Positions 1,001 through 2,957 of a stretch of 25,582 bases of DNA are shown piece after piece. The translations under genes and the position numbers were made by a program. Origin of the DNA: an uncultured Candidatus Saccharibacteria bacterium. Its GTDB lineage: Bacteria; Patescibacteriota; Saccharimonadia; Saccharimonadales; CAIOMD01. The stretch lies in assembly GCA_964489075.1 (NCBI GenBank), contig CAZAXJ010000001.1:1-25582 (forward strand). The letters are read 5' to 3'. Every line of letters starts with the position of its first letter. Position 1 is the first letter of the stretch. Below the pieces are notes generated by a model that searched no databases, was not told the origin of the DNA, and was given only the letters and a program-made list of their open reading frames with translations.

Positions 1001-2407
1001 ATGTCAGAAGTAACTAATAAACCTTCGTATATGGCAACCGCTCAAGAAGTTGCAACTATCTTTAATGTTCGCATAACTCAAGGCTTGAGTCATGAACAGG
1101 TCAAAAAAAACAAAGAAAGGGTCGATAAGAGAACATCTGTTAATTGTCCAAAACTGCCTTTTATTTTTTGGGCGATAGTATTAGTTGGCTTTAGTACATC
1201 AGTTGCAGTTTTTATTCTAAGCGAAGTAGCAGGTGTTTTGCTATTCGCTGGAGCTGCAACCCTGTTTGCTGTTTTCGGGTTGGCGCAACAAAATTATGTG
1301 AGGCATATTTTAGAAATCATTGCTAAATATCCTAAAGCTACACAAACCGTAAAACGCGATGGTGGGTCAACGTTTCAAGTTTTACCAAGCGAGTTAGTAA
1401 AAGGTGATGTAGTTATTTTGCAAAAAGGAGACTTTGTTGGTGCCGATATGAGACTGATTGAAGTTAATGACTTAGTTGTTGACGAAGAAGAAGTAACAGG
1501 TACTACGAATGCTGTTCAAAAAAATACCTTTGCAAGTACTAAAAAACAAAAACTAAAAGACCAAAAAAATATGGTTTTTGCAGGTAGCTATATTGTAGAG
1601 GGCAAGGGGGTCGCAATAGTTGTTGGGCCAATAATTCAACCTAGCAACTTTGTAAAGGTTCCAAAGCTACGTTTAAAAAAAGAGCAAAAATTCAGAAGAT
1701 TAATAGTACTGATAATTTCTGGGTTCTTGGGTGCATCTTTACTGCTATTTGATATTGGTATTTTTTCGACAGCAGCCTTAACAATATTACTTGTTGCCAG
1801 TACATATTATTATGTTACATATTGGTTAAAGGTTACTTCTTGGGCATCATTGTACGAAAAATTACTTAATATTGGCTTTCAGGCTAACTCTATCTTGGCT
1901 ATACAAAATTTAGCTAAAACAGACATCGTAATATTGAATACATCTAAATTAGAACTGCTAGAAGCAGCAGCTTTTGTTCATTCCTTGCAAGCAGAGCTTT
2001 CAATAGAAGTTAGAGGTATTACGGACACAAAGAAGGAAGTTAATGACTTAGAGCAAGAGTTGAATATTCGACAAAGTGCGTTGTCTGAAAAAGAATTTTT
2101 GAGCTCACGTCGTGATAAAAAATTAAAATCACTAAATGAATATCAATTTTTGCAAGATTTTAACGAAATTGCCATAAATGAAACATTGAGTTTACTTGGG
2201 CAGGCTGGGCATGAGGTTTTACTTATTGATGACAGAAAAATTCCAGAAGTGTCTACCAAATTAAGTAAAAGCTATTTGAACTTAACTTCTACCCCAAGCA
2301 GTGCTGCACTAAAGCAGGCAGCTGGGCTTTACAAGACACCATCATTAAAAAAAGTTGTCCAAACTTTTAACGAAATAGATCAATTTAAGAAGACAACAGG
2401 TTATTGA
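1001..2407 (+). CDS. degenerate, C-terminally truncated cation-transporting P-type ATPase-like protein
   Basis: N-terminal GLSHEQV (Cation_ATPase_N-like), actuator domain LVKGDVVILQKGDFVGADMRLIE and NMVFAGSYIVEGKGVAIVV, 4 TM segments and P-domain remnants. The DKTGT, TGES and PEGL motifs are absent and there are no M5-M10 helices. Confidence 0.75.
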   Translation: MSEVTNKPSYMATAQEVATIFNVRITQGLSHEQVKKNKERVDKRTSVNCPKLPFIFWAIVLVGFSTSVAVFILSEVAGVLLFAGAATLFAVFGLAQQNYVRHILEIIAKYPKATQTVKRDGGSTFQVLPSELVKGDVVILQKGDFVGADMRLIEVNDLVVDEEEVTGTTNAVQKNTFASTKKQKLKDQKNMVFAGSYIVEGKGVAIVVGPIIQPSNFVKVPKLRLKKEQKFRRLIVLIISGFLGASLLLFDIGIFSTAALTILLVASTYYYVTYWLKVTSWASLYEKLLNIGFQANSILAIQNLAKTDIVILNTSKLELLEAAAFVHSLQAELSIEVRGITDTKKEVNDLEQELNIRQSALSEKEFLSSRRDKKLKSLNEYQFLQDFNEIAINETLSLLGQAGHEVLLIDDRKIPEVSTKLSKSYLNLTSTPSSAALKQAAGLYKTPSLKKVVQTFNEIDQFKKTTGY

Positions 2408-2432
2408 CTTTTAAGCTAATTTTTGCTATAAT
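2404..2432 (+). promoter_or_regulatory. sigma70-type promoter
   Basis: TTGACT (2404-2409), 17 nt spacer, TATAAT (2427-2432), with extended -10 TG at 2424-2425. Confidence 0.8.
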
Positions 2433-2468
2433 ATATATGTTGATTGCAACAACAAAAATGTAAAAAAA

Positions 2469-2639
2469 TCGGTAAAAAGTAACCTGTTATTTGGTTGCCA
2501 AAAATACAATAGTACTTATGCCAAAAAAGGTGTACTATCTGTGTAAGGCTACAAAAACCAAAACATAAAAACAGGTTACTTGGCCGAACAAAAAAGCTAC
2601 GAACTTCTTTGCTATTAGTGTAGTAAGGCAAGTTTTGGC
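2469..2639 (+). ncRNA. candidate structured RNA / 5' leader (long rod plus second hairpin)
   Basis: Nested helices found by hand: 2469-73/2583-87; perfect 12 bp AAGTAACCTGTT 2477-88 / AACAGGTTACTT 2570-81; 2490-96/2556-62; 2497-99/2547-49; 2505-08/2542-45; 2509-15/2532-38. A second hairpin spans 2596-2639. No family recognised. Confidence 0.5.
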
Positions 2640-2666
2640 AAAAAAACAAAAACATGGAGGTAACCC

Positions 2667-2747
2667 ATGAGCGACGTAGCATTATCCTACGAACTCATGC
2701 CTACAAGCGACGAGCGACTGCTTAGCATCGATCAACTTCTTGCTTAG
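2667..2747 (+). CDS. 26 aa small ORF MSDVALSYELMPTSDERLLSIDQLLA
   Basis: GGAGGT Shine-Dalgarno at 2656-2661, ATG at 2667, TAG at 2745-2747. It lies between a near-consensus promoter and a terminator. Confidence 0.55.
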   Translation: MSDVALSYELMPTSDERLLSIDQLLA

Positions 2748-2752
2748 GAGGC

Positions 2753-2786
2753 AAAAAAATCCCGAACAATTAAGTTCGGGATTTTT
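2753..2786. terminator. bidirectional intrinsic terminator
   Basis: AAAAATCCCGAAC (2755-67), AATTAA loop, GTTCGGGATTTTT (2774-86). T-tracts on both strands. It sits between the tRNA-Met 3' end and the sORF stop. Confidence 0.85.
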
Positions 2787-2788
2787 CT

Positions 2789-2865
2789 TGGTAGCGGCGA
2801 CTGGAATTGAACCAGTGACCTTAGGCTTATGAGTCCTACGCTCTAACCAACTGAGCTACGCCGCC
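2789..2865 (-). tRNA. tRNA-Met (anticodon CAT), probably elongator
   Basis: GGCGGCG TA GCTC..GAGC, anticodon arm TAGGA-CTCATAA-GCCTA, T-arm ACTGG-TTCAATT-CCAGT, CGCCGCT-A-CCA; 77 nt with encoded CCA. It has no initiator features and lacks the C4:G69/C5:G68 pairs of E. coli-type Ile2. Confidence 0.92.
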
Positions 2866-2957
2866 ACATCGTCATCTTATTGTATAGCTAAACTAAAACC
2901 ACAATACTATAGCAAATTTTTATCTGTTAGGCCATATATTGCTATGATGAATGGCAT

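Follow-up and report, generated by a model that had tools for sequence, protein, structure and literature searches.

Here we describe a putative small-protein gene in a window of 25,582 nucleotides (nt), which is the whole stretch of DNA that was analysed, from an uncultured Candidatus Saccharibacteria bacterium (contig CAZAXJ010000001.1). Comparison with related genomes makes it very probable that the unit at 2404-2786 is a monocistronic gene encoding an acidic protein of 26 residues and carrying a leader insert that is not conserved. The small-protein family to which the product would belong carries no earlier name and appears, so far as sampled, to be limited to the order Saccharimonadales (Candidatus Saccharibacteria). 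Because the open reading frame (ORF) is conserved in hundreds of genomes, the unit is far beyond what chance would produce. The first-pass annotation had listed a near-consensus promoter (TTGACT-17-TGcTATAAT), a folded leader comprising a 119-nt rod with a perfect 12-bp helix and a second hairpin, a full GGAGGT Shine-Dalgarno (SD) sequence, a 26-codon small ORF (sORF) and a bidirectional terminator just after the stop codon. All of these signals were found again, displaced by one base at most. The annotation interpreted them as a highly expressed small-protein gene with a regulatory leader, or as a dual-function small RNA (sRNA). The small-protein part of this interpretation is backed by comparative evidence, namely order-wide conservation of the peptide, purifying selection, a consensus promoter, the SD and the terminator. 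The regulatory leader or dual-function sRNA found no support as a conserved feature; striking though its fold is, the leader is not what is conserved in the unit.

The sORF lies at 2667-2747 on the forward strand, and GGAGGT (2656-2661) is placed five bases upstream of the ATG at 2667. The predicted peptide has an isoelectric point of about 4.0 and a net charge of about -4.5, and it contains neither a cysteine nor a transmembrane segment. In relatives, SD sequences of the GGAG or GGA type precede ATG, GTG or TTG starts. Codon evolution was analysed in 16 distinct sequences of the same family, all of them 78 nt long and aligned without gaps. The mean pairwise differences at the first, second and third codon positions are 0.33, 0.20 and 0.50, the third position being the most variable. 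The dN/dS ratio, a check that had been suggested for this frame at the outset, is 0.19 and indicates purifying selection. The frame is open in 16 of the 16 sequences, and each of the five other frames is stopped in 14 to 16 of them. The only ORF that a standard track displays at this place is a minus-strand shadow ORF of 88 codons, as had been pointed out before, and it has no homologue even within the genus. Amino-acid conservation, an excess of synonymous change, an open frame and an SD with a start codon are thus found together here, as is characteristic of conserved protein-coding small ORFs. Since 26 codons fall below the usual minimum of gene callers, standard annotation misses the gene.

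The peptide is conserved across Saccharimonadales, which is the outcome of the tblastn comparison that the first-pass annotation had recommended. The first translated searches returned 26-residue orthologues, each with its own promoter, SD and terminator. Translated and profile searches together find one copy per genome in 21 of the 22 genomes of the same family. The sole exception is a genome of the same genus (G001), where the contig ends inside the upstream gene, so that its sORF locus is simply unassembled. A profile built from four sequences matched 171 of 401 genomes of the order, and one built from 53 sequences matched 223 of the 401, corresponding to 182 of 323 high-quality genomes and 150 of 255 genera (these tallies take in one unpublished genome, G349). 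Among 378 genomes sampled elsewhere in the phylum, the profile search gave no match. A copy with 73% identity was also observed on a 2.7-kb contig (L047, JAIBAV010000054.1) binned into a metagenome-assembled genome (MAG) of Chitinophagaceae; this is most likely a mis-binned Saccharibacteria contig.

The 53 sequences, drawn from many families, range from 24 to 34 residues and share the core L-A/S-Y-E-L/F-x-P-T-T/S-D/N-x-x-I/L-L-x-I/V-D-x-x-L. Glu9 and Asp22 are the same in all 53, Pro12 and Thr13 in nearly all, and the N- and C-termini vary.

The gene is preceded by a sigma-70-type promoter with an extended -10 element (2404-2432, forward strand), whose -35 TTGACT (2404-2409) and -10 TATAAT (2427-2432) stand 17 nt apart, with the TG at 2424-2425. 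With a score of 11/12 plus the TG, it is the top site within the first 6 kb. The 677-kb genome holds 27 sites scoring at least 11/12, this promoter among them. The upstream ORF (1001-2407) reaches into the -35 element with its stop codon. TTGACA-16/17-TATAAT stands ahead of the homologous sORF at essentially all of the 70 loci examined, and is often a perfect 12/12.

The position of the -10 element places the putative transcript start near 2438-2439, and folding and the comparison of loci reveal a short inverted repeat there (2438-2451, forward strand; UGUUG-AUUG-CAACA). The sequence of the repeat varies by lineage and its self-complementarity is kept, for example as UUGUCAUGACAA, GUUGAUGCAUCAAC, UUAAAGCUUUAA and AUUGCU-N7-AGCAA. 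RNAalifold gave a poor or empty consensus both for 41 sequences of this hairpin and for two sequences of the rod described below, the MAFFT alignments used being not structure-aware. Both structures were then assessed by folding each sequence separately against shuffles, which replaced RNAalifold. Of 62 distinct loci, 50 have a hairpin of at least 4 bp at +1, and 35 different stems occur among them. The mean minimum free energy (MFE) of these hairpins is -2.07 kcal/mol, versus -0.62 kcal/mol for shuffles (Wilcoxon p 2e-8, a value that is overstated since the sequences are related). The repeat may be either a 5'-terminal stem-loop of the RNA or a palindromic DNA site or operator. Among the loci compared (the window at 2438-2451 and L012-L105), it is frequently a perfect palindrome through the centre, as in ...GTCATGAC..., ...GATGCATC..., ...TCGCGA... 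and ...AAGCTT.... Such a perfect centre is not required by an RNA hairpin, and could point to a role at the DNA level or to an origin by template switching.

The leader between the promoter and the sORF is the most conspicuous part of the unit. Folding of the RNA from 2439 to 2786 is much more stable than that of its shuffles (z = -7.8). Much of the leader is a rod at 2469-2587 (forward strand), a genus-specific insert in the 5' untranslated region with an outer stem (2469-2473/2583-2587) and a perfect 12-bp helix (2477-2488/2570-2581). Its MFE is -40.7 kcal/mol, with z = -7.0 against dinucleotide shuffles. The second hairpin (2596-2639, forward strand) folds at -18 kcal/mol (z = -4.2) and lies within a 52-nt insertion that occurs only in this genome. 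It is followed at 2640-2661 by the A-rich tract AAAAAAACAAAAACA and the SD, which are unpaired in the local fold. A similar unstructured A- or CA-rich tract with a GGAG-type SD is found in relatives.

The usual leader in relatives is about 40-60 nt long and consists of a short 5' hairpin and then the A-rich tract. The leader measures 228 nt in this genome and 179 nt in G002, the one other genome of the same genus whose locus is assembled, and the rod is present in these two only. When the 383-nt unit was compared by BLAST with 60 relatives, the matches covered mainly the SD and ORF part, and the leader was matched in one genome of the same genus only. The two rods are about 74% identical and similar in overall layout, with an outer stem, a long second helix and an apical hairpin. 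The GGUUGCC.../...GGC...AACC core is identical in both, and the changes lie in the second helix and the apical hairpin. The second hairpin of this genome aligns to a 52-nt gap in G002. The A/U-rich repeats next to it are likewise missing from G002, so that a conserved switch between alternative pairings around the ribosome-binding site finds no support. Pattern scans of metagenomes for further members of the genus returned no match with the rod pattern and eight matches with the 5'-hairpin pattern, all of them unrelated. The genome contains one copy of the rod. An origin as a miniature inverted-repeat transposable element or other repeat was considered for it and rejected in view of the single copy and of the lack of a convincing target duplication.

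Inserts of 70-300 nt occupy the same position of the leader in other lineages (e.g. L031, L032, L036, L068, L074, L084, L089 and L097). Those of L031, L032, L035 and L036 have no homology to the rod or to one another past the first 20 nt. Structured inserts between the 5' hairpin and the A-rich ribosome-binding tract have been gained independently by several unrelated lineages. By this comparison the rod and the second hairpin appear to be recent lineage-specific insertions into an A-rich leader, outside the conserved unit. Since the inserts found at the same place in other lineages are unrelated, they offer no evidence for a conserved riboswitch or dual-function sRNA. The rod may still have a lineage-specific regulatory role, for example in the stability or translation of the mRNA in this genome.

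No known RNA family was recognised in the unit, which agrees with the earlier remark that no riboswitch, 6S, SRP or tmRNA signature was apparent. The scan of 2404-2786 against Rfam 15 gave no match at or above the gathering threshold; the only hits were sub-threshold and driven by the terminator, the best at 25 bits against a threshold of 55. No family matched the unit at permissive thresholds (E up to 10) either, and the long leaders scanned from other lineages gave no Rfam match. A 6S RNA and a tmRNA tag were considered and dropped, as their defining features are absent or the relevant C-terminus is not conserved.

It is nevertheless conceivable that the unit works mainly as RNA, either as a dual-function or as a structured regulatory sRNA, with the rod and hairpins functional and the ORF secondary. 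The very stable fold of the transcript and the rod speaks for this, and so do the rod architecture kept in G002 despite the changes in the apical hairpin and second helix, and the structured inserts found in the same leader elsewhere. However, the G002 rod pairs its apical part in another register and folds barely above its shuffles (z = -2.3), so that a structural constraint on the rod is only suggested by the two sequences. Moreover, the rod is limited to the genus and the second hairpin to a single genome, the inserts of other lineages are not homologous, no Rfam family matches, and what is conserved throughout the order is the amino-acid sequence. A non-coding structure or pairing region conserved beside the ORF, as expected of a dual-function sRNA, was not found. 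A primarily RNA-based function is therefore improbable, and the gene for a small protein remains the preferred reading.

The gene ends in a bidirectional intrinsic terminator (2751-2786) composed of an A-run, a 13-bp stem (2755-2767/2774-2786) and a T-run. The two 13-nt arms are 100% complementary and the hairpin folds at -18 kcal/mol. Terminator hairpins were also found downstream of the sORF in the four relatives that were read. In the window the terminator abuts the 3' CCA end of a tRNA gene with a CAU anticodon (2789-2865, minus strand), and because this gene is convergent the terminator can act both ways. The genome has three CAU tRNAs, and the neighbour of the sORF resembles neither the initiator nor the Ile2 type. 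We take it to be the elongator tRNA-Met, typed by eye against sequences of E. coli and B. subtilis. At 16 other loci of the family, including G002, the CAU tRNA shares the strand of the sORF and follows it at 87-319 nt; it is convergent only in this genome. Through this inversion the sORF terminator has become a common convergent terminator. An apparent -10 element of the TGcTATAGT type, belonging to the tRNA gene itself, was noticed by eye in the window (2789-2940) and in the relatives read. Among further loci outside the family, a CAU tRNA lies within 1 kb at 24 of 40, in either orientation.

Within the family the gene order is a half-length P-type-ATPase-like gene, the sORF, tRNA-Met, tilS and ftsH. 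The upstream ORF of the window (1001-2407, 468 amino acids) resembles P-type ATPases in the actuator (E1-E2_ATPase) part alone, with a score well below the thresholds of the full-length families. A shorter homologue of 326-392 amino acids precedes the sORF at 15 other loci of the family. Loci outside the family have different flanking protein genes. Many of these loci carry a gene for a small RRM_1 protein 210-500 nt upstream, in divergent orientation to the sORF: 4 of the first 13 and 19 of the 40 further loci, which amounts to 23 of 53 (about 40%). The loci concerned are L030, L031, L033, L041, L067, L070-L072, L076, L077, L079, L081, L084-L087, L093, L095-L097, L099, L102 and L104. The four RRM_1 proteins that were scanned have 84-101 amino acids. 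RRM genes are present in 374 of the 401 genomes of the order (a tally that takes in five unpublished genomes, G276, G317, G347, G349 and G358) and in 2 of 14 control genomes. Their near-universal presence in the order is unusual for bacteria.

The neighbourhood also bears on the proposal that the peptide is exported as a signalling peptide, as the precursor of a bacteriocin or of a ribosomally synthesised and post-translationally modified peptide (RiPP), or as an effector against the host bacterium. An abundant small peptide confined to an order of obligate epibionts would fit such a role, the very strong promoter suits a bulk product, and dedicated ABC transporters are able to export peptides that lack a leader. 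However, no modifying enzyme or dedicated exporter recurs among the flanking ORFs, which were clustered at 30 loci and, for ten of them, scanned against Pfam. The CAU tRNA and the RRM gene are the only neighbours seen again in several families, leaving aside those fixed within the family of this genome. The peptide itself lacks a signal peptide, a double-glycine leader and a cysteine, its C-terminus is variable and its core invariant, and its strong acidity is unlike that of known leaderless bacteriocins. Without the GG motif, the cysteines and the recurring modification or export genes, the sORF does not resemble a RiPP or bacteriocin precursor, and export is very improbable.

Least credible is an upstream ORF or leader peptide attenuating a downstream gene such as tRNA-Met or tilS-ftsH, a role that the short ORF, the strong promoter, the nearby hairpins and the persistent linkage to the CAU tRNA gene might suggest and that the anatomy of the unit largely refutes: a strong terminator comes immediately after the stop codon, the tRNA gene points towards the sORF in this genome and in relatives has its apparent own -10, in other families it lies on either strand and 85-1700 nt away, the leaders differ between genera so that no alternative pairing is conserved, and the peptide contains no regulatory codon run and shows protein-level conservation throughout its core, none of which is expected of a transcription attenuator.

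The product of the putative small-protein gene was compared with known proteins. Sequence searches of Pfam, NCBIfam and the PDB with the peptide and with the family profiles gave nothing significant. The best PDB hit, to the tail of ribosome-recycling factor (E = 2.1), was treated as chance. Structural look-alikes from the ESM Atlas are unnamed clusters only, with chance-level scores. When 1.84 billion protein representatives were searched exhaustively with HMMER, 86 clusters were returned at E <=0.001, mostly ORFs of 26-68 amino acids that carry the motif at their C-terminal end; no cluster forms a domain within a larger protein that has been characterised. In the longer hits P0006, P0007, P0012 and P0013 a stop codon was called as Gln and the frame runs on into non-coding DNA, even into a tRNA gene; they look like artefacts of an alternative genetic code applied to Saccharibacteria MAGs. 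Another hit, P0039 (391 amino acids, metagenomic), is an unrelated-looking repeat protein whose seven tandem repeats contain D-D-S-Y-E-W-I/A-P-T-N-D and resemble the Y-E-L-x-P-T-S/T-D of the sORF core (E = 2.7e-5, summed over the repeats). This likeness may reflect chance or a common short binding motif. Some orthologues are present in public protein collections, none of them named, and the product of the window itself is absent there. A full-text literature search found no paper on small proteins of Saccharibacteria.

Other classes of small peptide fit no better. A type I toxin or small membrane peptide would be expected to have a hydrophobic stretch of transmembrane length; the peptide has a net negative charge and no such stretch, and the only helix predicted for it is amphipathic. 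A double-glycine leader, a leader of the lasso or PqqA type, a clamp-binding motif and a degron were considered and dropped, their defining residues or spacing being absent or the C-terminus not conserved. AlphaFold2, given a 34-residue homologue and the family alignment, predicts a C-terminal helix that starts just after P-T-T-D. The predicted local distance difference test (pLDDT) is at least 90 at 15 residues, nearly all of them in this helix, and the N-terminus is modelled with less confidence.

These features suggest how the product might work. The strong promoter, the 5' stem-loop, the A-rich leader, the strong SD and the tight terminator would form a design for high and stable expression, and would make the peptide one of the more abundant products of the cell. 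Its proposed site of action is the cytoplasm, where the peptide would bind a conserved partner protein. One docking surface would be the extended hydrophobic and aromatic N-terminal motif L-x-Y-E-L-x-P. The other would be the C-terminal amphipathic helix, which would start from a T-S/T-D-E capping box and bear the invariant Asp. An abundant cytoplasmic protein-binding peptide is, we infer, the most likely function. Binding of a conserved partner as the mode of action is much less certain than the gene itself, and is put forward tentatively. Gene order weakly suggests the small RRM RNA-binding protein as the sole candidate partner. A still bolder version is that the peptide is an abundant, order-specific regulator acting on a core RNA-handling component, with the RRM protein as the leading candidate and the ribosome or RNA polymerase as alternatives, and that the rod is a newly acquired riboregulatory domain. 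This version is unlikely as a whole; if it is true, ultra-small epibiotic bacteria would possess a new class of small acidic modulator.

Several observations weigh against the interpretation given here. About 44% of the sampled genomes of the order are without an sORF match, which could reflect loss, divergence beyond the reach of a 26-position profile, or assembly gaps. The peptide has no homology to any characterised protein or structure in Pfam, NCBIfam or the PDB. An AlphaFold model of so short a peptide is weak evidence. The idea of an RRM partner is drawn from the synteny at 23 of 53 loci outside the family. As RRM genes are near-universal in the order, their presence or absence is uninformative on a link with the sORF, and in this genome the RRM gene is located on another contig (C26, about 2609-2854). 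No public RNA run was found to contain this organism; the RNA runs listed match only about 4-6% of the sequence words, which is assumed to represent conserved tRNA.

The public runs that do contain the window sequence are low-depth DNA metagenomes (from a bioreactor, and unlabelled runs of 2025). The four that were compared are identical to the window at 2-3x depth, apart from the A-run at 2640, and so provide neither variants for covariation nor expression data. Transcription and translation of the unit are accordingly presumed from its signals and its conservation. The contigs from three of the four runs have one A fewer in the A-run that precedes the SD; either the homopolymer varies in length or the assemblies differ.

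The genomes of Saccharibacteria measure 0.6-1.3 Mb and contain little DNA to spare. In these genomes a tiny gene appears to be kept across most of the order behind one of the strongest promoter designs of the genome, which usually marks a bulk product. Having escaped annotation, the gene does not feature in functional, comparative or proteomic work on these epibionts. Annotating and testing it could reveal an unrecognised component of the core physiology of Saccharibacteria.

Two groups of known systems invite comparison. Dual-function sRNAs that also encode a peptide include RNAIII/hld of S. aureus, SgrS/SgrT of E. coli and SR1/SR1P of B. subtilis. The predicted transcript resembles these in its length of about 350 nt, in its mostly folded non-coding part and in the tiny ORF near its 3' end. 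The base-pairing regions of those sRNAs are conserved, whereas the non-coding part of the unit described here is not conserved beyond the genus and no target-pairing region is identifiable in it. The closer parallel is with bacterial stand-alone small proteins of up to 50 amino acids that bind a larger protein, such as Sda, MciZ and SR1P of B. subtilis and AtpTheta of cyanobacteria. Like these, the unit appears monocistronic, with its own promoter, SD and terminator. Its product is also far under the thresholds of gene callers, is too small for an enzymatic domain, and is predicted to consist of a short extended segment and one amphipathic helix. The family differs from them in sharing no sequence similarity with any of them, in its restriction to Saccharimonadales, and in the near-perfect consensus promoter that precedes it at essentially all loci examined.

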